From: Burkholderiales bacterium
GTDB taxonomy: Bacteria > Pseudomonadota > Gammaproteobacteria > Burkholderiales > Burkholderiaceae_D
Assembly: GCA_016196925.1 (NCBI GenBank)
Contig: JACPWS010000066.1
Span: 1 to 28,136 of the forward strand
Length of the DNA: 28,136 nt
Direction: 5' to 3'
Shown: in pieces, positions 1 through 17,287 of the stretch
Numbering within the stretch: the stretch's first letter is position 1
Layout of the letters: each line of letters opens with the position of its first letter
Program-made: the position numbers and the translations under genes
Notes under the pieces: generated by a model
What the model was told of the DNA's origin: nothing
Seen by the model: the letters and a program-made list of their open reading frames with translations, nothing else
The model's database searches: none

Positions 1-61
1 CAATAAATGCTGGCAGGCGACCAATTATAATTGCTATAAAATCATATCTATAGATAACCAG

Positions 62-325: not shown

Positions 326-409
326 TTTAATCTCTCAATATAAACACGCGGCGCACCAGCTGATTTATTCTAAATCGGTTGCAAATTATTTAAACGCCCT
401 CTTATTTAA

Positions 410-700: not shown

Positions 701-931
701 ATCATCCCTGTAGTTTTAGTTTAAAGTGAAAGAGAAATGTGGCGCCGTGTGAACATTATCTAAAATCCGAGTCTGAAATCAATCGTTTGATGTGTCAGAT
801 TTAAATTTTACCACTAGTTCACTGAAAGATTAGCCAATTGGTTTGGCTGCGGCGACCACCTGTCGCTGGGCGGCCTTCAATTTGATTCTTGCCTGAGCTG
901 ACTTGGCCTGCTGCGGCGCACCTAGTTGTGG

Positions 932-1177
932 TCAGTGTCTTTGCTGTAAACTCGGCAGTTGCAATGTCTGAACGGCCTTTGCTTTCTTCTGCGTATCGCG
1001 CTCTGCTTTTAAGCGATCACCCGCCGCGTCCGCCGTTGTCTTCAACGCATTCAATCGTGTCTTGTCAGCAGTTGCTTTGGCAGACGCCAGTGTGGTGGTC
1101 GCTGGTGCTTTTGGCGCTGCTATCGTTTGCGGTCTGGCTGGCGTGTCCAGCCCTTCAGTGATTTCTTTGATTTTCAT
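932..1177 (-). CDS. hypothetical Ala/Lys/Thr-rich protein
   Basis: Start chosen at MKIKEITEGL because AGGGGGA lies about 6 nt upstream. Low-complexity, coiled-coil-like sequence. Ends at an in-frame TGA that is followed by 33 more sense codons (see findings). Confidence 0.4.
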   Translation of the reverse strand: MKIKEITEGLDTPARPQTIAAPKAPATTTLASAKATADKTRLNALKTTADAAGDRLKAERDTQKKAKAVQTLQLPSLQQRH

Positions 1178-1241
1178 GCTTTTCCCCCTGCATGTATTTA
1201 TCGACACGCAAGGGGATGCGGGCAGCAGTAATACGAAAGTA

Positions 1242-1688
1242 TTATTTTTTAAAATTCAATTTGACCGCGCCGCAGATCGTTTCGATCTGCGTGTCCAGTT
1301 CACCGTCCAGTACCAGCTTCCGCAACGCTTCCAGCGTCGCCAGCAAGTCGCTGGCCTTGTCCAGTTCCACCGCTGTTGCGCCTTTCGCGTTCAGCGGGAT
1401 GACCTTCGCGCCGTAGCGCACGGACACGCAGCATTTCCCGCTGCTGCCGTCAGTGAACCACCACTCCTTCAACTTCTTTGCCACTTCGACTGTCGCGCTT
1501 TCACCAGTTGCCGCGTTTTTCGTCGTTCGCATTTTGGTTGGTGCATAGGTCTTGCCGTCCTGCTTTGCCGTTGCCATTGCGATCTGCTCAAAAATTCGAT
1601 CTGCGATTTTTTGGCGGCGCATGACGATGGGTGGCATTTGCGCTGGACGCTTTGCGGTGACCAGCTTGAGCTTTGCGAGTGCAGACAT
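1242..1688 (-). CDS. hypothetical island protein
   Basis: 148-aa ORF with a GGAG about 8 nt upstream of the ATG. From memory it resembles a conserved family of roughly 150-aa island proteins (possibly DUF6641-like); this is unverified. Confidence 0.5.
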   Translation of the reverse strand: MSALAKLKLVTAKRPAQMPPIVMRRQKIADRIFEQIAMATAKQDGKTYAPTKMRTTKNAATGESATVEVAKKLKEWWFTDGSSGKCCVSVRYGAKVIPLNAKGATAVELDKASDLLATLEALRKLVLDGELDTQIETICGAVKLNFKK

Positions 1689-1853
1689 TGAATTTCTCCG
1701 TCAAGTTGTTTGTATGTCTTCACTCTAATGTCGGTCATTCAGAAATACGACCGAACTTTCATTGATCAAATTGATTTCATCGAAATTCGCATAGATCACC
1801 AAATTTCAGGCAATTTTTTATTTGATATTGTTTGGTGATGGCTAAATACTTTT

Positions 1854-2177
1854 ATGAAAAACACAGATTCTCTTGCCGATACCTGGCTAAAAAAACGCGG
1901 TCTGAATGTGCATACCTTTAGCACAACGAGGATAGAAATTGTCCGAGCACAGATGGTGGCCAAGCTACTGTTGAGCGATTATGGTAAGTATTTGAGCACC
2001 GATCAAATCGAAGCGCTGCATGAATTCCAACGCACTGCTGCAAACGGCAAGAAGGTTGTCAAAATAACAGACGGCGTGTGTTTCAAAATTATGAACATGA
2101 TGACTGCTGTGAATCGGAAAATTTTTATGCAACATCGAAAATTGGCAAAGCGATCCAATCGCCCAGTAGCCCAGTAA
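1854..2177 (+). CDS. hypothetical protein
   Basis: 107-aa ORF and the only plausible one in this interval. No clear SD and no recognisable motifs. Confidence 0.35.
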   Translation: MKNTDSLADTWLKKRGLNVHTFSTTRIEIVRAQMVAKLLLSDYGKYLSTDQIEALHEFQRTAANGKKVVKITDGVCFKIMNMMTAVNRKIFMQHRKLAKRSNRPVAQ

Positions 2178-2777
2178 GGAAGTTAGCAGTACAGGAAGAC
2201 ACGGAGATAAGCCACTTCAACAAAGGGCAAAAACGCGGGGTGAAATATGACGGCTAATGCCCCCGCACTTGCTACAGATCGCTGTAAAGAGCTGTAGCGT
2301 ACAGGTGAGCGCCGCTGAGTTGCTGCCATGCAAGCCAATGCAGAAGCAGATTGCAAGTTCCAATACGATCGTCTTGCGTAAAACTCATTTACAGTTGTGA
2401 GCGATGGACAATGTCTTTTCGAGCGCAAAGCGACGGTACCAATGTTCATTTTTTTAAAAGAAAATGCGCATAGCCGTCGCTTGCTCCAAACAATGGCCCC
2501 AATAAAAATAATTCAAAGCGCAGTGGGGCGGAAAGCAGAAAAGCGAAGTAACCGTGCAGAGCTAAGTGAGGGAGCGAACGCGAGCGAACATAGCGATAGC
2601 ACAAGCGAACGGCGTTCGCTTCCAACTCAGAAATCAATTCTGGCCTCCGCAAGCACTCAACAATGTTGCAGATCACGCGCAGGCGCTGCGGAATGCAAGA
2701 ACACAGCGCAATGCGGCAATCAAAAAATAAAAGCGTCTGCGGCGCTGTCGTCGATAAATATCTGGTGCAAATAAATT

Positions 2778-2807
2778 CACCAAACATTATTGCACTTATG
2801 TTTGGTG
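2778..2807. repeat. perfect 10-bp inverted repeat (CACCAAACAT-N10-ATGTTTGGTG) upstream of the short recombinase gene
   Basis: Read directly from the sequence: arms at 2778-2787 and 2798-2807. Confidence 0.8.
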
Positions 2808-2913
2808 CTTCGTAAATATTCAAAGCGAAACTGCGTGAAATTATTTGGCCGACTTTTGGCAGATAAGACGGCACAATTGAATACACGAATTTATTTGGTA
2901 AAGGGGAAATAAA

Positions 2914-3480
2914 ATGTCACAAGCTAAATGCTTAACAGCAACTGAAATCGAACAGGTTCTTGCATACGTCGCAACGCGGCGATTTGCGTTACGCAATCGG
3001 GTCATGTTCTTAACCAGCACGCTTTGCGGGATGCGCGTCGGTGAAATTGCCAGCTTGAAAATTGGCGACGTGCTGAACGCAGATGGCGTGGTGAAAGATT
3101 TCGTGCATTTGACGGTAGCCCAAACAAAGGGGCGACATCCACGCACGGTATTATTGCCGCAAAAATTGCAGGCTGAGATTCAGCGCTACATGGACATTCG
3201 GCGCGTCTCTGACTTTTCCCATCCGTTGTTCGTAACTGCTGGCGGGAAAGCATTTAGCGCGAATGTGATGGCGCAGCACTTTTTTTGGCAATATCGGAAA
3301 TGCGGCATTGTCGGCGCAAGCTCACACAGTGGTCGGCGCTCATTTTTGACTACGTTGGCAAATAAAGGCATTTCGATTCATATTCTCGCAAGTCTTGCCG
3401 GCCATAGATCGGTAAACGTTACGATGAAATATCTGACCGCAAATGACGAGATGAAGCGCAATGCTGTGAATTTAATTTAA
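2914..3480 (+). CDS. short tyrosine recombinase (phage-integrase catalytic domain only)
   Basis: 188 aa with an AGGGGA SD 7 nt upstream. Catalytic signature is present: GMRVGE (Arg), TKGRHPR (Lys), HSGRRS (His-x-x-Arg), GHRSV (His), MKYL (Tyr). There is no N-terminal core-binding domain. Confidence 0.8.
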   Translation: MSQAKCLTATEIEQVLAYVATRRFALRNRVMFLTSTLCGMRVGEIASLKIGDVLNADGVVKDFVHLTVAQTKGRHPRTVLLPQKLQAEIQRYMDIRRVSDFSHPLFVTAGGKAFSANVMAQHFFWQYRKCGIVGASSHSGRRSFLTTLANKGISIHILASLAGHRSVNVTMKYLTANDEMKRNAVNLI

Positions 3481-3561
3481 GGGCTGATTGACCAGTAACC
3501 AGTGGTGACCAGTTGCCAACTAATTTATGGTCGCCAGAGATATTTTGGTAGGGGTTTAATC

Positions 3562-3680
3562 GCAAATAGACGTAAAAAAAGCGCACATCGCGCCTACTCT
3601 TTATCCTAATCCGCCGACGCCAGTCATCAGTCTCCACCCGTCAGCAGTCACGCTTGTGCGGAATATTTACGTCTATTTGC
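3562..3680. repeat. 15-bp perfect inverted repeat pair (GCAAATAGACGTAAA / TTTACGTCTATTTGC) flanking 89 bp
   Basis: Arms at 3562-3576 and 3666-3680, between two convergent island genes. Confidence 0.8.
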
Positions 3681-3691
3681 AAAAATCAATC

Positions 3692-4321
3692 TCACCCGCT
3701 TTTTCTCAATTTAGCCAACTTTCCTGCCAAACTCGCGCCCGTCAATTCATCCAGCTTTGCAACTGGATTTTCTATCCAATAAATGGCGTTTCGCAGTACA
3801 GCCATTTTGACGTCAGCCTTGCTCTTCTTTTGTGCTGCGCCAATACACACCATGTATTTTGAACGCGATGTGACGATGCGTGGCATGCCAACCCGATCAA
3901 TGCTAATTTTCGATCCCGCACCAAAATCCAAATCTCTGTCGAACCATATTGCCAGGCTCCCGTCGCTGCTAATTATTTCCCGCAAGTACTCCCACGCCTT
4001 TTCGTATTTTGATTCCGAAAGCTCACGCAATCGCTGTGCTGTGCTTTTACCGCTCGTGTGCTTGCTGCGCTTTGCTGGCACGCTATTTCCGTCTGCTCTA
4101 TTTTCATCAAAGTCACCTGCATGCAGCAGTTCTTCATAACGCTTAATTTCGTCAGGCTTCGCTTCGAATATCTTTCGTTGGTCAAGTTCTCGCTGCCATA
4201 GATCTTCATATTCAGCTACGCCGTCCTTGCCAACCGCACCTTCAAAATCTCGCATGCTAACCGCTCCATTAGCCGCCATTTTTGCGAGCAAATTCTTAAG
4301 TCGTAACAAGTCGCGCATCAT
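3692..4321 (-). CDS. hypothetical protein co-transcribed with the integrase
   Basis: 209-aa ORF. Its ATG overlaps the integrase TGA (ATGA, 4318-4321), indicating translational coupling. No recognisable domain. Confidence 0.55.
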   Translation of the reverse strand: MMRDLLRLKNLLAKMAANGAVSMRDFEGAVGKDGVAEYEDLWQRELDQRKIFEAKPDEIKRYEELLHAGDFDENRADGNSVPAKRSKHTSGKSTAQRLRELSESKYEKAWEYLREIISSDGSLAIWFDRDLDFGAGSKISIDRVGMPRIVTSRSKYMVCIGAAQKKSKADVKMAVLRNAIYWIENPVAKLDELTGASLAGKLAKLRKSG

Positions 4322-5574
4322 GCCGTAGCCTTCTTCTTGCCCATCTTCGGTCCAGCGATCACATCAGCTTTCATTGCTGGCGTAATGTGGCCGTAGTGCT
4401 TTTCGATCATGCCAACGCTGGTTCCCATTTGCTTTGCCAGCGTTTCGATTGGCATGCTGTCTTGCAGCAGCGCGAAGTGGGCGTATGTGTGCCGCAGGCT
4501 GTACAGGGTGCGCTTTTCTTTCACGCCTTTGTCTTTGTCCAAGCCACTGTCGCGCATCAAATTTCTAAACGTGCCGTTCAACGATTTTGTTGTCTCGCCC
4601 GTTTGCAGCCGAAAAATAAAGGTATCCAGTTTCCGTTTAAGCAGCGCATCAAACTCAAGCTTTTTCAGATCGTCAAAACGGTCTTTGATGCGTTTCAAAT
4701 AGTCTTCCGCATTGTGCCGCGCAATCAGCGTGCGCTTGCCTGTCTTGCCATCTACGGTAAATTGTAGATACCGTTCGCCGCCCTTCAAAATCCATTCAAC
4801 ATCGCGCCACTTCATGTTCAATGATTCTGTGCCATGCCGCATCCCCGTGTTCGCCAGAATCAGTACGTAGTCTCGCAACAGCTCGCGCATGTGCACGGTC
4901 TTTTCCATGTGCCCCTTCTTCGCCCACGCCGTCATGTAGCTTGTCAGCTTGTTGTACTCGGCCAAGCTGAACGCCTCGCGCGGTGTCCCCTTCGCGCCAT
5001 TATTTTTCATCTTAGGCACTTGCGACTGTGCCAGCCAGCCGCGCTCAACGGCAGCGTCAAAAACGCGGTTTAGCGCAGATGTGTGCGTGGTAATTGTGCT
5101 GGCGACTGGTGCATGCCCCATTTCCTTCGTGCGCCATGCATCAAACGATTTAAGATGCTCGTATCCTATCGTGTTGATGTTGTACTTGCCAAAGTAGGGC
5201 ACGAGGTAGCGATTGATGGCGCCGATGTAGCTGTGGTAAACGCTCTTGCCAACACCGCTGTCGAGTTGCTTCTGCATTTCGTCCGAAGCCAGCTTGGCCA
5301 CATCGTTAAAGCGCCTGCTGCTAACTGGCAGATTTTCTTCGCGTAAAAAGCGGGCTTTGTCATACGCAGCACAGGCAAACGTCTTTGCATATTCCAAATT
5401 GCGCTGCTTGGTGCTGATGCGATGCCATTTCTCGTCGTTCAGCTTAAAGCGTGTTTGCCAGCGTTGGCTTCCGACGCGCTTGTAGAGCACAACTTCGCCA
5501 TCGCGTGCGTAGACAAGCTCGTATTCAGCGCTTTGCTTTGGGAGTTGGAGTGTTTTGGCAGCAGTTTTGGACAT
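4318..5574 (-). CDS. int: tyrosine-type site-specific integrase (island integrase)
   Basis: 418 aa. Motifs: ANTGMRHGT (Arg), YSLRHTYAH (His-x-x-Arg region), IEKHYGH (Tyr). Its start lies 112 bp from the 3' end of tRNA-Phe. Confidence 0.9.
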   Translation of the reverse strand: MSKTAAKTLQLPKQSAEYELVYARDGEVVLYKRVGSQRWQTRFKLNDEKWHRISTKQRNLEYAKTFACAAYDKARFLREENLPVSSRRFNDVAKLASDEMQKQLDSGVGKSVYHSYIGAINRYLVPYFGKYNINTIGYEHLKSFDAWRTKEMGHAPVASTITTHTSALNRVFDAAVERGWLAQSQVPKMKNNGAKGTPREAFSLAEYNKLTSYMTAWAKKGHMEKTVHMRELLRDYVLILANTGMRHGTESLNMKWRDVEWILKGGERYLQFTVDGKTGKRTLIARHNAEDYLKRIKDRFDDLKKLEFDALLKRKLDTFIFRLQTGETTKSLNGTFRNLMRDSGLDKDKGVKEKRTLYSLRHTYAHFALLQDSMPIETLAKQMGTSVGMIEKHYGHITPAMKADVIAGPKMGKKKATA

Positions 5575-5685
5575 TTAGCAGCACACTTGAAATAGTAGAT
5601 TTCAGTGTAGCAGCGAAACTAAAACTGTGCGATGACTGTGTTACAGAAAAGCGTAGCACACTTTCATGCGCTACGCCCCGTAATA

Positions 5686-5761
5686 TGGTGGCCCGGGGCG
5701 GAATCGAACCACCGACACAAGGATTTTCAATCCTCTGCTCTACCGACTGAGCTACCAGGCC
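5686..5761 (-). tRNA. tRNA-Phe (GAA)
   Basis: The reverse complement GGCCTGGTAGCTCAGTCGGTAGAGCAGAGGATTGAAAATCCTCGTGTCGGTGGTTCGATTCCGCCCCGGGCCACCA folds as a 76-nt cloverleaf. Anticodon loop is TTGAAAA. Near-identical to E. coli tRNA-Phe. Confidence 0.92.
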
Positions 5762-5912
5762 AAGACGAAGAATTATAGCGAGGCGGCTGCGGATTTGCAA
5801 ATGTTTTTTGAGACGGGGATATCGAAATCCTTATTTCCAGTCGTGGCCGAGGGCCATTCCGCCCCGGGAGGCTGCCGTATAATGGCGGGACTCATCGTTC
5901 CTTTATTGAAGA

Positions 5913-7118
5913 ATGCGCGTATTTATGGCGAACCAGACTCAGCATAGTGATATTTGCATCGTTGGCAACGGCGCGGTCGGCAAGGCGGCGGCGCTCGGCC
6001 TGACGCAGGCGGGATTGAAGGTGACTTTGTTGTGCCCGGCCGCCGCGCCAGTCGCCGCGTCGGATCACTGGGATGTCCGGGTGTATGCTTTGAATCATGT
6101 GGCGCATGACCTATTATCTTCATTGAGGGTGTGGGATGCGCTGGATGCCGGACGGGTGGCGCCGGTGGCGGCGATGCAGGTGCACGGCGGCCATGCCGCG
6201 GATGCGGGGAAGTTGGGCTTCGATGCGTATGGCGCCTGCATAGAAGAGCTGGCCTGGATAGTCGAAGATCGCAATTTGAACCGCGCGCTGGATACGGCGA
6301 TGAAGTTCGCGCAAAACCTGAACGTGCTGCACGGCCGCGCACAAGCCTTGCAATTACAAGAGGATAGCGCACTGGTTCGGCTCGATGACGGTACGGCGCT
6401 CCGCGCTACGCTGGTGATCGGGGCCGATGGCGCGCAATCCTGGGTGCGTGCGCAATGCGACATCGGGCTCGATTACCGTTCTTACGGGCAAAAAGGGGTA
6501 GTGGCGAATTTCGCCTGCGAAAAGCCGCATCGCGGCGTGGCGCAGCAATGGTTTGTCGGCGAGCAGGGCATCATTGCGCTGCTGCCTTTGCCGGGGCAGC
6601 GCGTGTCGCTGGTGTGGTCGGCGCCGGATGCGCTGGCGGCGCAATTGCTGCGCGAACCCTTGCCGGCGCTGGCGGCCCGTTTGGAGGAATATTGCCTCGC
6701 CAGTCTGGGGCATCTGAGCGCGCTCGTGCCGGAAGAGATCAAGGCGTTTCCGCTCACGCTGATGCATCCGCACAGTACGATAGCGCCGCGCGTGGCCCTG
6801 GTCGGCGATGCGGCGCATGTGGTCCACCCTTTGGCGGGGCATGGCATGAACCTGGGATTCGGGGATGTCGCCTGCCTGCTCGATCTGGTCAGGCGGCGGG
6901 AAGCGTATCGGGATTGCGGCGACAGTCGCGTGCTGGAACGTTATCGCCGCGCGCGCAAGGAGCAGGTGATGTTGATGCAGCTGACTACCGATGGCCTGGC
7001 GCGCTTGTTCGCTTCCGAGCTGGCGCCGTTGCGGCTGGCGCGCAATCTGGGCTTGAACTTGCTCGATCGTTTGCCGGTCATAAAGGGGAAGTTGATCTCG
7101 CATGCAATGGGCAAGTAA
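5913..7118 (+). CDS. UbiH/UbiF/VisC/COQ6-family FAD-dependent monooxygenase
   Basis: Motifs: GxGxxG (IVGNGAVGKAAA), GADGAQSWVR, GDAAHVVHPLAGHGMNLG. An alternative start is at 5925 (MANQ). Confidence 0.85.
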   Translation: MRVFMANQTQHSDICIVGNGAVGKAAALGLTQAGLKVTLLCPAAAPVAASDHWDVRVYALNHVAHDLLSSLRVWDALDAGRVAPVAAMQVHGGHAADAGKLGFDAYGACIEELAWIVEDRNLNRALDTAMKFAQNLNVLHGRAQALQLQEDSALVRLDDGTALRATLVIGADGAQSWVRAQCDIGLDYRSYGQKGVVANFACEKPHRGVAQQWFVGEQGIIALLPLPGQRVSLVWSAPDALAAQLLREPLPALAARLEEYCLASLGHLSALVPEEIKAFPLTLMHPHSTIAPRVALVGDAAHVVHPLAGHGMNLGFGDVACLLDLVRRREAYRDCGDSRVLERYRRARKEQVMLMQLTTDGLARLFASELAPLRLARNLGLNLLDRLPVIKGKLISHAMGK

Positions 7119-7166
7119 GCGCTCATAGTGCGATGGGCGGACCGTCTATTTTACTGAAAGTAATAT

Positions 7167-7898
7167 ATGAAATTTAAACAATATTCGCTCGCGCTCTGCG
7201 TGAGTTTGCCGGCACTGGTATTGGCCGAGACCGCGCAGGAAGCCGCTGTCAAAAAATTGGTCGAACCGCGTCTGGGCGAGGGCGTCAAAGTCGACGCGGT
7301 GACCAAGACCCCGTACTCGGGCTTGTTTGAAGTGCGGGCCGGCTCCGACATCATCTATACCGACGAAAAGGCGCAATACCTGTTTGTCGGCAATGTGTTC
7401 GACACCAAGACCGGCGCCAACTACACCAAGGCCAGGGTGGATGAAATCAACAAGATTAAATTCTCCGATCTGCCGCTGGAATCTGCCCTGAAAATGGTCA
7501 AGGGTGACGGCAAGCGCGTGATTGCCGTGTTTGAAGACCCGAATTGCGGTTACTGCAAGCGCTTCCGTAAGACGCTGGCCGGCATGGACAATATTACGGT
7601 GTACACCTTCATGTATAACATCTTGTCGGAAGATTCCACGACCAAATCCAAGAACATCTGGTGTTCCGCCGACCGCAACAAGGCATGGGATGAGTGGATG
7701 GTGAACGGCAAAATGGCGCCGGTTGCGCCCGCCAATTGCGCGACGCCGAACGAAAAGGTTCTGGCGCTGGGCCAGAAATTGCGGGTGAACGGCACGCCGG
7801 CCATCTTCTTTACCGATGGTTCGCGCATTCCAGGCGCTATCGATGCCAAGGGTCTGGAAGAGAAATTCAACTCGCTGGCCGGCGCCAAGGCGCGTTAA
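7167..7898 (+). CDS. dsbC: DsbC-family thiol:disulfide interchange protein
   Basis: Signal peptide (LCVSLPALVLA), thioredoxin-fold CGYC active site, and GTPAIFF near the cis-Pro region. Confidence 0.8.
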   Translation: MKFKQYSLALCVSLPALVLAETAQEAAVKKLVEPRLGEGVKVDAVTKTPYSGLFEVRAGSDIIYTDEKAQYLFVGNVFDTKTGANYTKARVDEINKIKFSDLPLESALKMVKGDGKRVIAVFEDPNCGYCKRFRKTLAGMDNITVYTFMYNILSEDSTTKSKNIWCSADRNKAWDEWMVNGKMAPVAPANCATPNEKVLALGQKLRVNGTPAIFFTDGSRIPGAIDAKGLEEKFNSLAGAKAR

Positions 7899-8143
7899 GC
7901 AGCGGCTCCGCTCCCCGCCCATACCGTGCCCGCGCAAGCAACGGCCCGTTCTGCCGGCGCTGTCGGTATTCGCTATCGCTGGCTGCATCCTGCGGCAGAT
8001 GGCGCTCTAAACGCTAGAATTCGCCTTGGCCGGGTGAAATTACTGGGGGGAGTATATATATTCACCCCTTTAAATTCGCTGACAACAGCGTGATTTTGCT
8101 TGATACTCCCAAAAAAATACCAATTTCAGGAAGATTTGAGGTG

Positions 8144-8314: not shown

Positions 8315-8413
8315 ACGATTTAAGACGCATTGAGGAGGTGCGGGCGAGGTTCGTGCGCGCTCGGGATGGCTGTCGTTCGCGCCGTTTGCCCGATTTTTGC
8401 GCTATACTTCAGC

Positions 8414-8482
8414 CCTTCCAAGGAGCGCTGCGACCGGATCTCGCTATCCTGCCAGGCTTGGAATCAGACAACCGCGCTCACG
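8414..8482 (+). promoter_or_regulatory. SAH riboswitch (S-adenosylhomocysteine-responsive leader of ahcY)
   Basis: AGGAGCGCUGCGAC ... GCCAGGCUUGG ... AACCGCGCUCAC matches the remembered SAH-element consensus. Pseudoknot pairings: TTCCAAG (8416-8422) with CTTGGAA (8457-8463), and GAGCGC (8423-8428) with GCGCTC (8474-8479). Located directly 5' of ahcY. Confidence 0.75.
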
Positions 8483-8511
8483 TTACTTTTTTCACTAGAA
8501 AGGAGGGCGTG

Positions 8512-9936
8512 ATGAACGCCACTGTAACTTCCACCCAAAATTCTTCCCAAGACTTCTACGTTGCCGACCTCAGCCTGGCTGATTGGGGCCGCAAGGAAAT
8601 CCGCATCGCCGAAACCGAGATGCCTGGCCTGATGGCGATACGCGAAGAGTTCGCCGCCGCCCAGCCCTTGAAAGGCGCGCGCATCACCGGTTCGCTGCAT
8701 ATGACGATCCAGACCGCGGTGCTGATCGAAACCCTGACCGCGCTCGGCGCGCAAGTGCGCTGGGCATCCTGCAATATCTATTCGACCCAGGACCATGCGG
8801 CGGCCGCGATTGCGGCCGGCGGCACGCCGGTGTTTGCATTCAAGGGTGAAAACCTCGATGAATACTGGGAATTCACGCACCGCATTTTCGAATGGACCGA
8901 CGGTGGCTACTCCAACATGATCCTGGATGACGGCGGCGATGCAACGCTGTTGCTGCATCTGGGCACGCGCGCCGAGAAAGATATTTCCGTGCTGGCGCAC
9001 CCCGGTTCGGAAGAAGAAATCTGCCTGTTCAACGCGATCAAGAAACATCTGGCGAGCGAGCCGGACTGGTATTCCAAGCGTCTGCCGCAGATCAAGGGCG
9101 TGACCGAGGAAACCACCACCGGCGTGCACCGCCTGTACCAGATGCACAAGGAAGGCAAACTGGCGTTCCCGGCGATTAACGTCAACGATTCCGTCACCAA
9201 GTCCAAGTTCGACAACCTGTACGGCTGCCGCGAATCGCTGGTGGACGGCATCAAGCGCGCCACCGATGTGATGATCGCCGGCAAGGTCGCGGTGATCGTC
9301 GGTTACGGCGACGTCGGCAAGGGTTGTGCGCAAGCGATGCGCGCGTTGTCGGCCCAGGTCTGGGTGACCGAGATCGACCCGATCTGCGCACTGCAGGCGG
9401 CGATGGAAGGTTTCCGGGTTGTTACCATGGATTATGCGGCCGAATTCGGCGACATCTTCGTGACCACCACCGGCAATTACCACGTCATCAGCCATGCGCA
9501 CATGCTGCAGATGAAGGACCAGGCCATCGTCTGTAACATCGGCCACTTCGACAATGAAATCGACGTCGCCTCGCTCAAGCAATACACCTGGGAAAACATC
9601 AAGCCGCAGGTCGATCACGTGATTTTCCCTTCCGGCCGCCGCATCATCCTGCTGGCCGAAGGCCGCCTGGTCAACCTCGGTTGCGGCACCGGCCATCCTT
9701 CGTATGTGATGAGCTCTTCGTTTGCCAACCAGACTATCGCCCAGATAGAATTGTTTGCGAACACGGCGCACTATCCGGTCGGCGTCTATACTTTACCCAA
9801 GCATCTCGATGAAAAAGTCGCGCGTCTGCAATTGAAGAAACTGAATGCGCAACTGAGCGTGCTGACCGAAGAGCAGGCCGCGTATATCGGCGTGAAAAAA
9901 GAAGGCCCTTACAAGCCGGATCATTATCGTTATTGA
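8512..9936 (+). CDS. ahcY: adenosylhomocysteinase
   Basis: 474 aa from the ATG at 8512, with AAGGAGG at 8500-8506. Typical AhcY sequence throughout, including the NAD-binding GYGDVGKG. The 5' ORF extension to 8338 covers the riboswitch and is not coding. Confidence 0.95.
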
Positions 9937-10580: not shown

Positions 10581-11414
10581 ATGAATACGCCTAATTTCAG
10601 CATAGAATTTTTCCCGCCCAAGACCGCGGAAGGCGCAGAAAAATTGCGCGTGACCCGGGCCAAGCTGGCCGAGTTGCATCCGAAATATTTCTCCGTCACT
10701 TTCGGCGCCGGCGGCACCACCCAGCAAGGCACGCTCGATACCGTGCTGGAAATACGCCGCGAAGCTCATGAGGCGGCGCCGCACCTGTCTTGCGTAGGCG
10801 GCACGCGCGACTCTATCCGCGCGATCTTGCAGCAATACCAGGCGCACGACATCCGCCGCCTGGTGGCCTTGCGCGGCGATTTGCCGAGCGGCTACGGCGG
10901 CGGCGGCGAATTCCGCTACGCCAGCGAGCTGGTGGAATTCATCCGCGCCGAGACCGGCGATTGGTTTCATATCGAAGTCGCGGCTTACCCGGAAATGCAT
11001 CCGCAGGCGCGCTCGCCGCAAGACGACCTGAACAATTTCGTGCGCAAGATGCAGGCCGGCGCGAATGCCGCGATCACCCAGTATTTTTACAATGCCGACG
11101 CCTATTTCCGCTTCGTCGAAGAGACGCAAAAAGCCGGCATCAGCGCGCCTATCGTGGCCGGCGTCATGCCTATCACCAACAGCAGCCAGCTGCTGCGTTT
11201 CTCGGAAATGTGCGGCGCCGAAATCCCGCGCTGGATACGCCTGAAACTCGGCAGCTACGGGGACGACAGCGCCTCGATCAAGGCTTTCGGGCTGGATGTG
11301 GTCACGCACTTATGCGAACGCCTGCTGGCCGGCGGCGCGCCGGGCTTGCATTTCTATTCGCTGAACCAGGCGGCCGCCACCACCGCGATCTGGCAGCGCT
11401 TAAGTTCAGCGTAA
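10581..11414 (+). CDS. metF: methylenetetrahydrofolate reductase
   Basis: 277 aa. Begins FSIEFFPPKT and contains VTFGAGG, LRGD and AAYPE motifs typical of MetF. Confidence 0.93.
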   Translation: MNTPNFSIEFFPPKTAEGAEKLRVTRAKLAELHPKYFSVTFGAGGTTQQGTLDTVLEIRREAHEAAPHLSCVGGTRDSIRAILQQYQAHDIRRLVALRGDLPSGYGGGGEFRYASELVEFIRAETGDWFHIEVAAYPEMHPQARSPQDDLNNFVRKMQAGANAAITQYFYNADAYFRFVEETQKAGISAPIVAGVMPITNSSQLLRFSEMCGAEIPRWIRLKLGSYGDDSASIKAFGLDVVTHLCERLLAGGAPGLHFYSLNQAAATTAIWQRLSSA

Positions 11415-12308
11415 GCCCAGCCACAGCCCGAGCGGCACGAACAGGACGGCGGCGGCATTGCCGAGCAAGACGATGGAAGCGACCTTGTCCGGCTCTTGCC
11501 GATACTGCTCCGCCAGCATGAAGCAAAACACGGCCGGCGGCAGGGCGGCGAACAGATACATCTGGCCGCGCTGGCTGGCCGTCAGCGGCAGCACTTGCTC
11601 GAGCAGGAAGGCCATCAGCAAGCCGGCCAGCGGACAGGCCGCGGCACCGGTCAAGCCTATGCGCCAGCTGGCGAAATTGATGTCCAGCATGCGCACGCCG
11701 AGCGCAAACAGCATGATGGGGATGCAGGCGTCGCCGCTCATCTTCAGCGCCAGAAACAGGCTGGCCGGCAGCGCGATATGGAAGATCGCGAACGTCATGT
11801 CGGCCGCCATCGCCAGCATCATAGGGCTGCGCAGGAAGCGCCACGGGCTGTCGCGGTGGTCGGGGTGGCCGTGCTGTAGGATGCGGATGCCGACCGTGAA
11901 ATACACCAGGTTGCACGCCATGAACAGGGCGACCGCCGCCGACAGGCCGCCGGCGCCGAAGGCCAGCGCCGCCAGCGGCAAGCCCATATTGCCGCAATTG
12001 TTGTACATCATGGGCGGCACGAAACTGCGCACGTCGTAACCCAGCAGGCGCGCCAGCGGCCAAGCCAGCAAGCCTGAGCCGAGCGCAATCAGGGCGCCGG
12101 CCAGGATCAGCCAGCCGTTCCCTATCACATCGAAATCCCTGGCCGCCAGCGCCGTAAAGATCAGCAAAGGGCACAACACATCCATGCTGATGCGGTTCAC
12201 CGCCACCATGTCGGCGGCCGCGGCGGCGCCCTTGCGGCGCGCATACAGATAACCGAGGGCGACGACGATAAAGACTGGAAAGATGATGGCAAGGATGCGT
12301 TCTGACAC
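11406..12308 (-). CDS. AEC (auxin efflux carrier) family transporter
   Basis: 300-aa polytopic membrane protein with an AEC-like N-terminus (ILAIIFPVFIVVALGY). Its 3' end overlaps the metF 3' end by 9 bp (convergent). Confidence 0.8.
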   Translation of the reverse strand: MSERILAIIFPVFIVVALGYLYARRKGAAAAADMVAVNRISMDVLCPLLIFTALAARDFDVIGNGWLILAGALIALGSGLLAWPLARLLGYDVRSFVPPMMYNNCGNMGLPLAALAFGAGGLSAAVALFMACNLVYFTVGIRILQHGHPDHRDSPWRFLRSPMMLAMAADMTFAIFHIALPASLFLALKMSGDACIPIMLFALGVRMLDINFASWRIGLTGAAACPLAGLLMAFLLEQVLPLTASQRGQMYLFAALPPAVFCFMLAEQYRQEPDKVASIVLLGNAAAVLFVPLGLWLGLR

Positions 12309-12533
12309 GACTGGGCTCGCAAATGGATGAGCGGCTCAGTATCGCAGATTCTTGCGCCGGGCGTTTCCGGCGCGACTATGCCGCCTTTCGACGGTGCGAC
12401 GAATATCAGTGGTTGTCCCGAAGAATTTGCCATAAAATGAAAGCGCATCGCTTCTGCAAGCTTGATTTCCTGTATCGATCATCGCCAGCCTGAGACTTCA
12501 GGCTTTGCCGGCCTCACACGGAACAACCAAGTC

Positions 12534-13178
12534 ATGACTGAACTGAATGAGCAACAACAGCGCCTGACCATCAAACTGGTGTATTACGGCCCGGCGCTGT
12601 CGGGCAAGACCACCAACCTGACCCGCCTGCACGATATGCTTGCGCCCGAGCTCAAGGGCGAGATGATGACGCTGGAAACCGAAGGCGACCGCACGCTGTT
12701 TTTCGACTTGCTGCCGCTAGGTTTTACCGCACCCTCGGGCTTGACGATCAAGTTCAAGCTGTTCACCGTGCCCGGCCAGGTCGCGCACGACGGCACCCGC
12801 AAGGCGGTGTTGTCGCGCGCCGACGGCGTGATGTTTGTGGCCGATTCGCAAGCCAATCAAATTTACAATAACGGCGCTTCCTTCGATAACCTGATCGCGA
12901 ACGCCGGCATGGTCGGACTCGATCTGGCGACGCTGCCGCTGGTAGTGCAATTCAATAAACGCGACATGCCGGATATCCTGAGCGAGCAGCAAATCCTGGA
13001 GCGCTGGTCGCAGGCGCCGTGGCCGGTGTATTTCGCTTCGGCGCTGGAGGGCAGCGGCGTGCTGGAATCGTTCGATGCCTTGCTGGCCAGAATTTACGAT
13101 AATCTCGACGCTGAATTTTCTTTCGGCGGCCAACATGGCTTAAGCCGCGCAGCCTTTATCGCGGCAGTGCGGGGGTAG
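12534..13178 (+). CDS. MglA-family Ras-like small GTPase
   Basis: Motifs KLVYYGPALSGKTTNL (P-loop), GDRTLFFD (switch I with Arg/Thr), FTVPGQV (switch II Gln), MFVADSQ, QFNKRD (G4). These align nearly one-to-one with Myxococcus MglA as I recall it. Start chosen at MTELNEQ; a TTG at 12462 is an alternative. Confidence 0.85.
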   Translation: MTELNEQQQRLTIKLVYYGPALSGKTTNLTRLHDMLAPELKGEMMTLETEGDRTLFFDLLPLGFTAPSGLTIKFKLFTVPGQVAHDGTRKAVLSRADGVMFVADSQANQIYNNGASFDNLIANAGMVGLDLATLPLVVQFNKRDMPDILSEQQILERWSQAPWPVYFASALEGSGVLESFDALLARIYDNLDAEFSFGGQHGLSRAAFIAAVRG

Positions 13179-13180
13179 CG

Positions 13181-14413
13181 ATGGACCTGGCTCAATTCGA
13201 CCGTGACATTACGCTGGCCGAGTTATTGCGCGGCATTTCCGGCACCAGACTGAGTGCGGCGCTCGACCGCTCGCTGCGATCCAACTGGCGCCTGCTCGAC
13301 AGCAGCGGCAATGATTTGCTGTGTTCGCAAAACTTGCGCGACGAAGACGGCAGCTGGAATAGCGCGGTTTTGCGGGTGGAACTGGAAAGCATAGGCAGCC
13401 TGGCGGCCGAGTGCGAGCAAGCCGGGGTCGATACTTGTGCCGCCTGGCTTGAGCTGGTGCTGGCCGGCGCCCATCGCTACAGCATGGCGGCCGACCTGCA
13501 TCTGGAAACCGTCTTCACCAGCTACAAGGACTTGCAACGCGAACACGCGGCCTTGCAGGAATCCGAACAGCGTTACCGCGAACTGGCCGGGCAGCTCGAG
13601 CAAAGGGTGGCGGCCCAGGTGGTGTTGATAGAGCGCTCGCAGCGCCAGCTGTATCAAGCCGAGAAAATGGCCTCGGTCGGCAGCCTGGCGGCGGGCGTGG
13701 CGCATGAAATCAATAATCCTATCGGTTTCCTGCGCAGTAATTTAAGCACTGCGATCGACAATGCCGCCAGCATGCGCGAGGCGCTGCTGGCCTATCGGCG
13801 CGGCGACCCGGCGGCCGCGGAAAAAATCTGGAAAGCGAAAGACCTGAGCTTCATCCTCGACGATTTTCCTGTGCTGCTGGCCGAGTCGGTCGACGGCGCC
13901 GACCGCGTCGCGCGCATCGTCGCCAATCTGAAGGATTATGCCAACATCGACCAGACCGAAGTCAGCGCAGTCGATCTGAACGAGGTCATCCATACCGTGA
14001 TGCGCCTGATCGGCGACCAGCCGTGCGAGCAGATAGAGCTGGCGACCGATTTGCACCCCTTGCCGGCCATCGTCTGCGACCGCGGGCGCCTGAACCAGGT
14101 CTTGTTGTCGCTGCTGCAGAATGCTGTGCGCGCCCTGAGCGGGAAAGGCGCGATACGCGTTTCCAGCGCCGTGCAGGGCGAAGAAATCCGCATCGCCGTG
14201 CGCGACAACGGTTGCGGCATCGCGGCGGAAGCGCTGGCGCGCATCTTCGACCCGTTCTTTACCATGCAAGACGTCGGCAAGGGCACCGGGCTCGGCCTCA
14301 CCGTGAGCCAGGAAATCATCGCCAGTTACGGCGGCCATATCGAAGTGGAAAGCCAGGTCGGTATAGGCAGCACGTTCACGGTGTGCCTGCCGCTGCCGGT
14401 TGCGGCGAAATAA
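13181..14413 (+). CDS. soluble sensor histidine kinase (unassigned N-terminal domain, coiled coil, HisKA, HATPase_c)
   Basis: H-box AGVAHEINNPIGF, N-box LLQNAVRAL, G1 DNGCGI, F-box FDPFFT, G2 GTGLGL. No hydrophobic TM segment. The ATG is 2 nt after the GTPase stop. Confidence 0.9.
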   Translation: MDLAQFDRDITLAELLRGISGTRLSAALDRSLRSNWRLLDSSGNDLLCSQNLRDEDGSWNSAVLRVELESIGSLAAECEQAGVDTCAAWLELVLAGAHRYSMAADLHLETVFTSYKDLQREHAALQESEQRYRELAGQLEQRVAAQVVLIERSQRQLYQAEKMASVGSLAAGVAHEINNPIGFLRSNLSTAIDNAASMREALLAYRRGDPAAAEKIWKAKDLSFILDDFPVLLAESVDGADRVARIVANLKDYANIDQTEVSAVDLNEVIHTVMRLIGDQPCEQIELATDLHPLPAIVCDRGRLNQVLLSLLQNAVRALSGKGAIRVSSAVQGEEIRIAVRDNGCGIAAEALARIFDPFFTMQDVGKGTGLGLTVSQEIIASYGGHIEVESQVGIGSTFTVCLPLPVAAK

Positions 14414-14431
14414 TTTCCTGGAAAAGCAAGT

Positions 14432-16666
14432 ATGAGCACACCCGCCAATTTTTCCCACCTGTTCACCGGCGCCCCGGCGCCGGCGGCGACCGAATTGCCT
14501 AAAGCGAAGGCCTACCGCATCTTGCTGGTCGACGATGAGCCGAATGTCTTGTCTGCGCTCAGGCGCGTGTTCCGCCAGGAAAACTATGAAGTCGTCACTT
14601 GCCAGGCGCCGCAAGAGGCGCTAGAGCGGCTCGGGCGGGAAAAATTCCAGCTGATTATCAGCGATTACATGATGCCGGGCATGAACGGCGGCGAGCTGCT
14701 GAAGCAGGCGCGTGCCAATTTCCCCGACATGATACGCATCATGCTGACCGGTCATGCCGATGTCAACGCCGTGGTCGGCGCGGTGAAGACCGGCGCCGTT
14801 TACAAATTCATCCTCAAACCCTGGAATGACGACGATTTGCGCGTGACGGTCGCGCTGGCGCTGGAGCAGCATTCCTTGCTGGAGAAAAACAAGGCGCTGC
14901 AAAAGGAAAACCTGGAAAAATCGAGGGAAGTCGCGCAACTGGCGAAAATCAGCGTCAGCAATCGCAGCCAGCTGGCGTTCACCTTGAATAAACACGGCGT
15001 GCTGGGCGCGCAGCAATTGGAAGAACTGTTGAATTTGCAGCAGCAAAGCAAGGAGCCGGCGATCCGTTTGCTGGTAGAGCGCAACTGGGTCAGCGAGAAA
15101 ACCATCAGCGATTTCCTGGCCAGGGAAATGAAGCTGCAACAGGTGGCGCTGGCCGAATATGTGGTCGATCCGGCGGTCGCCGCACTGGTGCCGGCCGTGC
15201 TGTGTCATAAGCAACTGGTGCTGCCGCTGAGCATTAGCGATAAGCACTTGCTGATGGCGATGGCCGACCCGCTCGACGCCGGCCTGATCGAAGACTTGCG
15301 CTTCATCAGCGGCTTGGAAATCGTGCCGGTGCCGGCATCGATACACGCGATCACGGACAAGATATCTGAAGTGTACAAGCTCGGCGATTCCGATCTGTCC
15401 GACCTGGAAGTGGCGTTCGGCGTTTCCGACCCTTACGAAGGCATACAAATCGTCATCGACGAAGACGACGATTTGTCGCTGACCGAGTTGTTGCGCGAGA
15501 CCGAAGAGCCGCCGGCGATACGCCTGGTGAATTCCATCTTGCTGGAAGCGATACGGCTGGGCGCTTCCGACATCCATATCCAGCCGCGCGCAAAAAACGT
15601 GATCATACGCTTGCGCATCGACGGCGTGCTGACCGACAAGATGTTCATCCCGCACAATATGCATCAGTCCATCGTGTCGCGCATCAAGATCATGGCCGAA
15701 CTCGATATTTCCGAGCGGCGCCGGCCGCAGGACGGCCGCCTGACCGTGAAGACGCCGAAGCGCATCGTCGATTTGCGCGTCTCGGCCTTGCCGACCATCA
15801 ACGGCGAAAAGATCGTGATGCGCATACTGGACCGCAATTCCTCGGTGCTGAGCATGGACGGCCTCGGTTTCAGCGCCGCCAGCCTGGAGCGCATCCAGTA
15901 CGCCAGCGAAAAGCCGCAAGGCATCATCCTGGCGACCGGGCCCACCGGCAGCGGCAAGACCACCACGCTGTACAGCCTGCTGCAAAGCAATGCGTCCGTG
16001 GAAAAAAACTACCTGACCATAGAAGATCCGGTCGAATATTATCTGGACAGCGCCGGCCAGGTCCTGGTCAAGGAAAAGATAGGCTTGACGTTTCCGCTGA
16101 TTTTGCGCGCCATCTTGCGGCAAGACCCCGACGTCTTGCTGATCGGCGAAATCCGCGATTTCGAGACGGCCGAAGTGGCTTTCCATGCGGCGCTGACCGG
16201 GCACCAGGTATTTTCCACCTTGCATACGAATTCGGCGATCGCCACCGTTTCACGCCTGTTCGACCTAGGCCTGAAACCGTTTGTGATCGCGACCGCGCTG
16301 GAAGCCATCGTCGCCCAGCGTCTGGTGCGGAAAATCTGCGAAGTATGCCGCGAACCGGTGACGCCAGATTCCGCCGCGCTGCGCCGCCTCGGCGTGCGTT
16401 TCCAGCACGGACTCAAGCATTGTTTCAAAGGTCGCGGCTGCCAGGCTTGTTACCACACCGGGTATAAAGGGCGGATAGGGCTATATGAAGTGCTGAGCCC
16501 GGACGATCACATGCGCCACCTGATCGCGGGCGAGGCTGCCGTCACCGAAGTCGCGCAATACGCCAACGCCAAAGGCTTCACCACCCTGCGCGACGACGCC
16601 TTCGACAAAGTGCAGGCCGGCCTGACCACGCCGGAAGAAGTGCTGCGCGTGCTGGGGCCGGAATAA
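14432..16666 (+). CDS. response-regulator receiver fused to a T2SSE_N domain and a GspE/PilB-type secretion ATPase
   Basis: REC: LLVDDE, IISDYMMPG (Asp), MLTGH, FILKPW. T2SSE_N-like segment at about aa 190-320. ATPase: Walker A GPTGSGKTTT, Walker B DVLLIGEIRD, His box GHQVFSTLHTN, tetracysteine CEVC...CQAC. Confidence 0.9.
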   Translation: MSTPANFSHLFTGAPAPAATELPKAKAYRILLVDDEPNVLSALRRVFRQENYEVVTCQAPQEALERLGREKFQLIISDYMMPGMNGGELLKQARANFPDMIRIMLTGHADVNAVVGAVKTGAVYKFILKPWNDDDLRVTVALALEQHSLLEKNKALQKENLEKSREVAQLAKISVSNRSQLAFTLNKHGVLGAQQLEELLNLQQQSKEPAIRLLVERNWVSEKTISDFLAREMKLQQVALAEYVVDPAVAALVPAVLCHKQLVLPLSISDKHLLMAMADPLDAGLIEDLRFISGLEIVPVPASIHAITDKISEVYKLGDSDLSDLEVAFGVSDPYEGIQIVIDEDDDLSLTELLRETEEPPAIRLVNSILLEAIRLGASDIHIQPRAKNVIIRLRIDGVLTDKMFIPHNMHQSIVSRIKIMAELDISERRRPQDGRLTVKTPKRIVDLRVSALPTINGEKIVMRILDRNSSVLSMDGLGFSAASLERIQYASEKPQGIILATGPTGSGKTTTLYSLLQSNASVEKNYLTIEDPVEYYLDSAGQVLVKEKIGLTFPLILRAILRQDPDVLLIGEIRDFETAEVAFHAALTGHQVFSTLHTNSAIATVSRLFDLGLKPFVIATALEAIVAQRLVRKICEVCREPVTPDSAALRRLGVRFQHGLKHCFKGRGCQACYHTGYKGRIGLYEVLSPDDHMRHLIAGEAAVTEVAQYANAKGFTTLRDDAFDKVQAGLTTPEEVLRVLGPE

Positions 16667-16707
16667 GCCCTTGTCAGCCTTAGTGAAATGCAGATTAAAT
16701 CAAAAGA

Positions 16708-16780
16708 CGTCATTCCCGCGAAAGCGGGAATCCATGTAGATCAAACACTTAGGTGGATCCCCGCTTTCGCGGGGATGACG
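16708..16780. repeat. inverted pair of REP-like elements (CGTCAT[T/C]CCCGCGAAAGCGGG[A/G]ATCC)
   Basis: Copies at 16708-16733 and, in reverse orientation, 16755-16780. Each is a GAAA-loop hairpin. They lie between convergent genes, so they are a likely bidirectional terminator or REP. Confidence 0.75.
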
Positions 16781-16804
16781 AAATCGGAATAAATCCGTGT
16801 TTCC

Positions 16805-17287
16805 TTAGCCCGCCTTGCCCGCCTTCAGCACCGCATAGTCGAGCGGCAGTGCAGTCGTGCTCTTAATCACTTCCATCACAAAGCTGGAGCTGACGTCTTG
16901 CAGGTCGGCCACCTTGACCAGTTTTTTATACACGAAATCGAAGCCGGCCATGTCCGGCACATGCACCTTCAACAGGTAATCGATATCGCCGCTCATGCGG
17001 AAAATCTCGACGATTTCCGGGATGTCGCGCACCCCGGCGATGAAGCGCTGCATCCACTTTTCATTGTGCTGGGCGGCCTTCAGCGCCACCATCACCGTCA
17101 GGCCCAGATTCAGCCTGACCGGATCGCATAAGGCCACCTGGCGCCGTATCACGCCATCTTCCTGCAATTTTTGCAAGCGCCGCCAGCACGGCGTGACCGA
17201 TAAATGCACGGCTTGCGCCAGGTCGGCCAGGGCTATCGACGCATCTTTTTGCATTAAATTTAAAATTTCTAGATCTTTTTTATCCAT
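16805..17287 (-). CDS. Lrp/AsnC-family transcriptional regulator
   Basis: 160 aa with an N-terminal HTH (DLEILNLMQKD...LADLAQAVHLSVTPCWRRLQKLQEDGVI) and a C-terminal RAM/AsnC_trans_reg domain. Divergent from metC. Confidence 0.9.
   Translation of the reverse strand: MDKKDLEILNLMQKDASIALADLAQAVHLSVTPCWRRLQKLQEDGVIRRQVALCDPVRLNLGLTVMVALKAAQHNEKWMQRFIAGVRDIPEIVEIFRMSGDIDYLLKVHVPDMAGFDFVYKKLVKVADLQDVSSSFVMEVIKSTTALPLDYAVLKAGKAG

Follow-up and report, generated by a model that had tools for sequence, protein, structure and literature searches.

Bacterial Ras-like GTPases are understood almost solely through MglA and MglB of Myxococcus. The MglA of this module, in both M. xanthus and T. thermophilus, carries an intrinsic arginine finger, a PGQ motif instead of DxxGQ and an NKxD motif, and it also regulates the type IV pilus through PilB. 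Two other described systems are close to the one considered here: SofG of M. xanthus, an orphan MglA-family GTPase of 239 amino acids that is unstimulated by MglB, has no known GTPase-activating protein (GAP) and positions PilB and PilT (PMC4316618), and the actinobacterial conservon (CvnA kinase, CvnB Roadblock protein, CvnC and CvnD GTPase), a conserved operon that links a histidine kinase with a GTPase of the MglA family (PMC4316618). Here we describe a three-gene operon in a 28,136-nucleotide stretch of DNA from a Burkholderiales bacterium (GenBank assembly GCA_016196925.1, contig JACPWS010000066.1, positions 1 to 28,136; hereafter the window), which encodes an MglA-family GTPase, a soluble histidine kinase and a PilB-type ATPase fused to a receiver (REC) domain. 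The three proteins are co-inherited across several phyla as an ordered, often translationally coupled unit, and we lean, at slightly better than an even chance, towards reading them as a small-GTPase-coupled two-component system in which the response regulator is a PilB-type ATPase acting in trans.

Three intact co-oriented open reading frames (ORFs) fill window positions 12534–16666, namely the GTPase gene, the kinase gene (13181–14413, 410 amino acids) and the ATPase gene (14432–16666, 744 amino acids), with spacers of 2 and 18 nt respectively by their ORF coordinates. The GTPase frame is open from an upstream TTG at 12462, and we set its start at the ATG at 12534, giving 214 amino acids, because its orthologues measure 214–216 amino acids. 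The protein has a Pfam match to Arf (E = 6e-8), and in a phmmer search of the PDB its residues 3–188 matched the MglA proteins of M. xanthus (E = 3e-44) and T. thermophilus (E = 8e-43). The motifs picked out from the letters alone are all present: the P-loop GPALSGKTT from G19, D52-R53-T54, P80-G-Q82 and NKRD (N141 to D144). R53-T54, P80-G-Q82 and N141-K-R-D144 are invariant in 26 orthologues and retained in nearly all of the 85 loci described below. By similarity and by these hallmark motifs, we assign the GTPase unambiguously to the MglA family (group 1).

However, the GTPase differs from canonical MglA, which has Gly21, a length of about 195 amino acids and no C-terminal tail, and its identity with M. 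xanthus MglA is only 41%. An alanine (Ala21) occupies the position of Ras Gly12 and MglA Gly21 and is invariant in the subfamily (26 orthologues and 80+ relatives), and the protein ends in a conserved tail of about 28 residues (~186–214; YDxLDxxFxLxxxHGLxxxxF). Judged by sequence, the combination of Ala21 with this tail marks a distinct subfamily. Glycine substitutions at the Ras Gly12 position slow hydrolysis, and the G21V variant of MglA is GTP-locked; because alanine occupies this position in the window protein, its GTP hydrolysis may be slow and differently regulated.

The set of loci used for comparison came from a scan of one genome per GTDB species with the GTPase alignment, which gave 80 loci, and was completed by five earlier loci to a total of 85. 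The ordered triad of GTPase, kinase and REC/MshEN/T2SSE protein was recognized by blastp of the loci in 49 of the 85, with unrelated flanking genes, a proportion from which the frequency of the triad among all MglA relatives is unreadable because the retrieval peptide patterns (A[LM]SGKTTNL and GDRTLFFD) select this GTPase subfamily and have no bearing on canonical MglA. Early finds were contigs of Noviherbaspirillum, Janthinobacterium and a Burkholderiales metagenome-assembled genome (MAG), with the triad in differing surroundings. Among the Beta- and Gammaproteobacteria, the triad is present in Burkholderiales, Noviherbaspirillum, Janthinobacterium, Rhodoferax, Gallionellaceae, Sedimenticola, Oleiphilaceae, Kangiellaceae, Marinobacter, Pseudomonas and Stutzerimonas; beyond these classes it extends to Bacteriovoracaceae and to the Desulfobacterota and Nitrospirota, the further loci coming from Desulfosarcina, Desulfoluna, Desulforapulum, Geobacter, Geomonas, Syntrophales and Thermodesulfovibrio and from other Nitrospirota. 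In 44 loci, the distance matrices of the three proteins correlate with r = 0.86 (GTPase–kinase), 0.86 (GTPase–ATPase) and 0.94 (kinase–ATPase), values that are raised in part by the phylogeny common to the host species. Of the 44 junctions between the GTPase and kinase genes, 17 are overlaps of 4 nt. The recurrence of the ordered triad in 49 loci from several phyla with unrelated flanks rules out chance adjacency, which the sequence-only reading had left open, and synteny extends far beyond the Burkholderiales.

Four loci in this collection stand out. At L039 (1711–3590, Burkholderiales MAG), the GTPase carries R53H and Q82D (YDGPALSGKTT, NDHTLFFD, TVPGDST) and is followed by a kinase with the reduced PocR domain described below, and the REC-ATPase is absent, looking like a decayed variant. 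In Desulfosarcina cetonica JCM 12296 (L019, 10062–12504), the REC-ATPase is broken into three consecutive ORFs, either as a frameshifted pseudogene or through an assembly error. The order is rearranged in Ca. Magnetomicrobium (L046, 1171–10008), where the REC-ATPase lies upstream of accessory kinase and receiver genes and not after the kinase. In addition, a triad of gammaproteobacterial type lies on a contig binned as Polaribacter sp. (Bacteroidota; L042), which is probably a binning error and not a true occurrence in the Bacteroidota.

We also clustered all neighbours of the 49 triad loci, and the only recurrent families were the triad proteins themselves, extra histidine kinases and receiver proteins. 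No MglB/Roadblock gene was recurrent beside the orthologues, and no Roadblock/LC7 domain was found among the window ORFs scanned, so that, in contrast with the MglA/MglB module, in which the cognate GAP is expected within four genes, the GTPase has no MglB partner at the triad loci and is encoded with a kinase and a receiver-ATPase. Similarly, no gene for a PilC/GspF platform protein, pilin, secretin or prepilin peptidase was recurrent near the triad at these 49 loci, unlike PilB and MshE the triad ATPase has no recurrent pilC, pilins or pilMNOPQ beside it, and the 28-kb window holds no pilus or type II secretion system (T2SS) component genes. The pilus genes met near orthologues were two PilT-like genes approximately 2 kb downstream of one Desulforapulum triad, with unrelated genes between, and we gave them no weight because they do not recur among the loci. 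Larger clusters, as in Stutzerimonas and Geomonas, add a PAS kinase, REC-PAS, REC-HD-GYP and single REC proteins and a large PAS/GAF kinase. At the Noviherbaspirillum locus L001, CheA, CheB and two large REC/PAS/GGDEF/EAL proteins are encoded upstream of the triad (1–7972), and HDOD-HD, HATPase_c, REC-HD and REC genes lie downstream (12166–16230), which hints at a link to chemosensory and cyclic di-GMP (c-di-GMP) signalling. The window operon is the minimal version, with the triad alone. The sequence-only reading had called it an orphan operon that lacks a Roadblock gene, platform protein, pilin and secretin and has non-pilus flanks; the domain scans of the window bear out these absences, and a recurrent mglB neighbour, sought at the other loci, did not appear. 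The word orphan fits the window itself, where the minimal triad stands alone, but not many of the other genomes, in which genes for a PAS kinase, REC-HD-GYP and single REC proteins join the triad in a larger cluster.

The kinase has a HATPase_c domain (Pfam, 6.8e-27, 94.5 bits) and a HisKA match of 21.9 bits, under the Pfam cut-off of 26.9. The phospho-acceptor is H175 in the sequence HEINNP (codon at 13703–13705), and neither it nor the N and G boxes vary across 36 kinase orthologues; the H-E-x-x-N motif suggests a bifunctional enzyme with kinase and phosphatase activities. Neither an N-terminal transmembrane segment nor a HAMP domain was detected by Pfam or in the AlphaFold2 (AF2) model, and an identical sequence is on record from a Burkholderiales MAG. 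The kinase had been pictured from the letters as soluble, which stands; it is, however, not sensor-less. In AF2 models (predicted local distance difference test scores of 82.5 and 80.7), residues 1–121 form two helices and a four-stranded sheet, followed by a very long signalling helix that runs into the DHp domain. No Pfam family matched the first 120 residues, a word-indexed search with the N-terminus alone returned two proteins, and an exhaustive HMMER search of 1.8 billion proteins with the domain recovered 59 representatives, which makes the family a small one. Foldseek gave weak GAF/PAS matches only (E >= 0.035), and we rejected a fused MglB/Roadblock GAP as an identity for this domain, the Roadblock entries 8yl2 and 8fw5_H having a Foldseek probability of <= 0.25.

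Profile comparisons by hhalign related this domain to PocR. The N-domain of the beta/gamma triad kinases aligned with the N-domains of PocR kinases at 96.2% (E = 2.4e-9) with two large deletions, the delta/Nitrospirota triad kinases aligned with the PocR region at 99.2% (E = 1.5e-19), and the two triad groups aligned with each other at 97% (E = 1.2e-10). Both groups miss the same two PocR inserts, including the Cys-containing loop, and the Pfam PocR model (PF10114) is unmatched in the window kinase and in ten other triad kinases. Since profile–profile homology is accompanied by two large deletions and by no Pfam match, we classify the N-domain as a derived, reduced relative of PocR (mini-PocR) that lies outside PF10114 by the Pfam criterion. 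With its pocket-forming loops apparently lost, this scaffold is probably ligand-blind, and because of that loss the input to the kinase is probably a protein, i.e. the MglA-like GTPase encoded immediately upstream.

The loci of lower identity (L056–L085), mostly from Myxococcota and Bradymonadia, encode the same type of GTPase, with Ala21 and the same tail, followed by a soluble PocR-HisKA-HATPase_c kinase and no ATPase (e.g. L075, 8001–10486, and L083, 8001–10036); a single receiver domain follows the kinase in L074, L075 and L080. Since the partner of this GTPase type in the sister clade is a full PocR kinase, the comparison points to the Ala21-type GTPase and PocR-type kinase as the conserved core of the system, and SofG might itself belong to the sister clade. 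These loci bear directly on whether the GTPase acts on the kinase or on the ATPase. In the latter arrangement, the GTP-bound GTPase would recruit or activate the ATPase at the pole or at the pilus machine, as MglA (via SgmX) and SofG do for PilB in Myxococcus, and the kinase would be an independent second input through the receiver. MglA and SofG are indeed tied to the activity and placement of PilB and PilT (PMC7668184; PMC4316618), known partners of MglA-GTP include the receiver-domain proteins RomR, FrzS and AglZ (PMC4316618), and the GTPase–ATPase distance correlation is as high as r = 0.86. However, the sister clade keeps the GTPase and PocR kinase without any ATPase, which argues that the kinase is the conserved partner of this GTPase type, and the gene with which the GTPase gene overlaps is that of the kinase. 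We think direct action on the ATPase somewhat unlikely.

The order of the flow between GTPase and kinase could also be the reverse, as in the conservon, with the kinase regulating the GTPase as a GAP, as a guanine nucleotide exchange factor or by sequestration, and the GTPase forming an output parallel to the receiver-ATPase. The conservon GTPase has been proposed as an output of its kinase (PMC4316618), and the absence of MglB from every locus examined would call for some other control of the GTPase cycle, a situation shared with SofG, which likewise has no known GAP (PMC4316618). The two operons differ in most of their parts, however: the conservon kinase sits in the membrane and has a HAMP domain and an LPxR tail, whereas the triad kinase is soluble with a mini-PocR domain; the conservon has Roadblock and DUF742 proteins and no response regulator, whereas the triad has neither of these and includes a dedicated response regulator; and the conservon GTPase belongs to group 2 with a deviant G4, whereas the triad GTPase has a standard NKRD. 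We found no CvnB- or CvnC-type gene in the window or at the triad loci, so that the Roadblock (CvnB) and DUF742 (CvnC) partners of the conservon are missing, and a receiver-containing effector in the same operon fits an ordinary output from kinase to receiver. A reversed flow therefore appears quite improbable to us.

The third protein contains, in order, Response_reg, MshEN and T2SSE domains. Its receiver has the phospho-acceptor D78 together with D34/D35, T106 and K129, all five of which are invariant in 49 orthologues, and its nearest solved relative is 2RJN, from an HD-type response regulator. Within one operon, and with an 18-nt spacer between the genes, there is thus a kinase with H175 and HATPase_c and a receiver with acidic pocket, threonine and lysine, from which the pair qualifies, as far as its residues can tell, as a two-component system. 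The motor part carries the arginine fingers RPQDGR, Walker A GPTGSGKTT, an Asp box, Walker B, a His box and a tetracysteine zinc site (CxxC...CxxC); the arginine fingers, Walker A/B, Asp and His boxes and four cysteines are invariant across the 49 orthologues. The earlier claim of an intact receiver, Walker A/B, His box and tetracysteine is thus upheld by Pfam and by this invariance. By its domain match and full set of motor motifs, the protein falls in the T2SSE superfamily (PF00437), and it aligned with the solved PilB 5TSG from the MshEN_N bundle to the C-terminus (E = 6e-133).

In its full-length alignment from MshEN_N to the C-terminus and its intact motor motifs, the triad ATPase resembles the PilB/MshE extension ATPases, but it adds an N-terminal receiver, has a degenerate c-di-GMP motif and scores below the PilB cut-off. 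It reached 558.8 bits against the PilB model TIGR02538 (curated cut-off 675.65) and 540.8 bits against the GspE model TIGR02533 (curated cut-off 630.25), and none of the NCBIfam curated models covers either the ATPase or the GTPase at its cut-off. Binding of c-di-GMP by MshEN domains is defined by two 24-residue motifs, RLGxxLLxxGLLxxxxLxxxLxxQ, that are five residues apart, and imperfect motifs can still bind (PMC5013675). The MshEN_N of the window ATPase (53 residues, 180–232) retains the 24+5+24 layout and scores 8/11 relaxed positions in each motif, but QLA replaces RLG in motif I, and motif II shows G to I, G to N and Q to E, a degeneracy that is similar in the aligned orthologues (n = 48). 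Because the motif has lost the Arg and Gly of RLG and three key residues of motif II, binding of c-di-GMP by the triad ATPase is doubtful.

The closeness of the ATPase core to PilB could also mean that a canonical pilus or T2SS locus has its only PilB or GspE displaced to this site, and that the adjacency to the other two genes is incidental, a caution that the sequence-only reading had itself raised. This we find hardly credible: the protein scores under both curated cut-offs, conservation of the triad spans phyla in which its flanks differ, and G. metallireducens has a canonical PilB (5TSG) as well as the REC-fused Gmet_3473. The alignment of the deposited 5TSG chain starts at its residue 23, opposite query residue 178, with no receiver matched, and the coexistence of this canonical PilB with Gmet_3473 effectively excludes a displaced sole PilB. 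A different question is whether the ATPase drives a filament at all. It could instead be a signalling output, with its phosphorylation or nucleotide state controlling binding to regulators, for example of exopolysaccharide or biofilm. M. xanthus PilB reportedly has a signalling role in exopolysaccharide production, genes for a platform, pilin or secretin do not recur at the 49 loci, and the surrounding genes all encode signalling proteins, including HD-GYP phosphodiesterases. However, all catalytic and zinc-site residues of a working PilB-type motor are invariant in the 49 orthologues, and the alignment with a solved PilB covers the complete architecture, MshEN_N through to the C-terminus; such conservation argues for ATP-driven mechanical work, and we regard a purely signalling role as unlikely.

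From the integrity of these parts, their co-inheritance and the lack of nearby MglB or machine genes, we infer the following sequence of interactions for the small-GTPase-coupled two-component system that we favour. The GTPase, working without MglB, would in one of its nucleotide states bind the mini-PocR domain and set the kinase or phosphatase activity of the soluble kinase, which would autophosphorylate on H175 and pass the phosphoryl group to D78 of the ATPase receiver. Phosphorylation of D78 would then turn the PilB-like motor on or off by way of its hexamer assembly or its ATP turnover. The ATPase would most probably work in trans, on a type IVa pilus (or related) machine whose genes lie elsewhere, and would give the cell a signal-dependent alternative to its housekeeping PilB. 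There are precedents for individual steps: the actinobacterial conservon kinase interacts with an MglA-family GTPase (PMC4316618), and in M. xanthus the activity or placement of PilB is under the control of MglA and SofG (PMC7668184; PMC4316618). SofG is functionally the nearest precedent, by analogy, for a link between an MglB-less GTPase and PilB, although it works with bactofilins and the housekeeping PilB and not with a receiver-fused ATPase.

Several points weigh against this interpretation, among them the phylogenetic inflation of the correlations and the selective retrieval of loci already noted. Many loci hold additional kinases and receivers, so the adjacent kinase need not be the sole or the main phosphodonor. 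The loss of the ligand pocket is our reading of alignment gaps, that the ATPase works in trans on a type IV pilus machine is assumed, and the ATPase or its receiver is as plausible a binding partner of the GTPase as the kinase. A bolder version is that a widespread, MglB-independent GTPase has as its effector a ligand-blind kinase of PocR descent and through it phosphorylates a spare PilB-type motor. Cells could in this way exchange the motor of an existing type IV pilus machine for a signal-gated extension ATPase, or add one to it (motor swapping), or the ATPase could act on an unrecognized substrate; this is conceivable, but on balance we doubt it. If true, it would be the first bacterial pathway from a small GTPase through a histidine kinase to a mechanical ATPase, and would offer a general explanation of the wiring of orphan MglA-type GTPases.

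Parts of the triad have been catalogued before. Wang et al. (2016) gave the REC-MshEN-T2SSE architecture a single unreferenced catalogue line, which has Gmet_3473 as its example and beta-, gamma- and delta-proteobacteria as its range (PMC5013675, Suppl. Table 4); in both architecture and taxonomic range this agrees with the triad ATPase. The Wuichet survey recorded Gmet_3475 as an orphan MglA of 225 amino acids (PMC4316618). As these locus tags are two apart, they evidently represent the two ends of the same triad, catalogued separately. The same survey counted 59 orphan MglA homologues, which were not pursued, and its group-1 orphans with no neighbours noted include Daro_0968 (214 amino acids), Gmet_3475, Geob_3508, GM18_0303, GM21_2366, Dalk_0302 and HCH_00229 (PMC4316618); matched by length, taxon and locus tag rather than by sequence, these are probable members of the triad GTPase subfamily. 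Dechloromonas is listed once in the supplement of that paper, which also covers orphan MglBs (PMC4316618), and this single entry is consistent with a genome that has the GTPase, but no MglB. Neither survey links the GTPase, kinase and ATPase, and in the full-text literature we found no functional study of the triad, whether by the combination of its parts or by locus tags (Daro_0966–0968, Gmet_3473–3475, Geob_3508, GM18_0303, Dalk_0302 and GM21_2366). The sequence-only reading had known of no characterised example and had suspected that surveys might already list the module; the literature agrees on the first count, and on the second it lists both end components, but separately. Small-GTPase-coupled signalling and regulated PilB ATPases are each already known, and what is newly added here is the reduced PocR domain, the core of GTPase and PocR-kinase, the subfamily with Ala21 and tail, the degenerate MshEN motif, a spread far wider than the Burkholderiales and the frequent embedding of the triad in a larger signalling cluster.

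The operon gives one orphan MglA subfamily defined and conserved partners, and it opens the questions of how a GTPase cycle runs without MglB, whether GTPases can feed into two-component phosphorelays outside the actinobacterial conservon and how phosphorylation can control a PilB-type motor. Tractable hosts are available in Janthinobacterium, Marinobacter, Stutzerimonas and Geobacter metallireducens. In environmental Proteobacteria and in metal-reducing Desulfobacterota, the presence of a second PilB paralogue that is under regulation could bear on how cells behave on surfaces and form biofilms.

Table 1. Positions of the operon, its domains and the adjoining elements in the window
Feature	Position	Strand	Basis
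AEC-family transporter gene, divergent	11406-12308	-	ORF listing
Intergenic region, 225 bp, between divergent transporter gene and GTPase gene (presumed operon promoter region)	12309..12533	.	ORF coordinates
MglA-family small GTPase, 214 amino acids	12534..13178	+	Pfam Arf and PDB phmmer matches
Kinase N-terminal sensor module, residues 1-121: reduced PocR-like (PAS-like) domain and long signalling helix	13181..13543	+	AF2 models, hhalign
Kinase coiled-coil, DHp domain and HATPase_c (residues 300-406)	13544..14413	+	Pfam, orthologue alignment
ATPase REC domain (Pfam residues 30-140) and N-terminal leader	14432..14851	+	Pfam Response_reg 2.7e-25
ATPase MshEN region: MshEN_N (residues 180-232) and MshEN_C/N1 (residues 235-319)	14969..15388	+	Pfam MshEN 2.9e-17
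T2SSE (PilB/GspE-type) hexameric ATPase core	15500..16666	+	Pfam T2SSE 1.3e-125, 419 bits
Inverted pair of REP-like hairpin elements at operon end	16685-16734 and 16754-16803	.	Sequence comparison of arms
Lrp/AsnC gene, convergent	16805-17287	.	Domain scan of window ORFs

The layout given in Table 1 agrees exactly with what had been read from the letters, i.e. three same-strand ORFs with their two spacers and a 225-bp leader, followed by a pair of repetitive extragenic palindromic (REP) elements, seen here as hairpins at 16685–16803, and a convergent lrp. The REP-like pair sits between the ATPase stop codon and lrp; its 50-nt arms are 76% complementary, each with an internal GC hairpin of the CCCGCGAAAGCGGG type, and a terminator-like hairpin lies on the minus strand at 16712–16731, inside this region. 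Between 12300 and 16800 the ORF listing holds no free-standing ORFs besides the three operon genes. No convincing match to the sigma-70 consensus was found on the + strand of the leader, no Rfam family, the c-di-GMP riboswitch included, matched upstream of the operon, and PADLOC gave no meaningful defence-system match in the window. The other window genes are ahcY, a holin-like membrane protein, metF, a transporter, lrp, a Cys/Met pyridoxal phosphate enzyme, PBP1A, two ABC exporters and an S9 peptidase.

Two further observations concern the upstream part of the window. An S-adenosylhomocysteine (SAH) riboswitch (RF01057, 55.8 bits) lies at 8414–8486 (+), upstream of ahcY, and the listed ahcY ORF (8338–9936) is over-extended, because the riboswitch overlaps it and the AdoHcyase match starts only at residue 72. 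In addition, window positions 1–5761 are low in GC (0.41–0.51, as against about 0.60 elsewhere) and are bounded by a tRNA-Phe gene (5686–5761, −); this stretch contains a phage-integrase fragment of 188 amino acids (2914–3480) and ORFs without Pfam matches at 1062–1691 (+), 3692–4321 (−) and 4318–5574 (−), and looks like the remnant of a tRNA-targeted genomic island.

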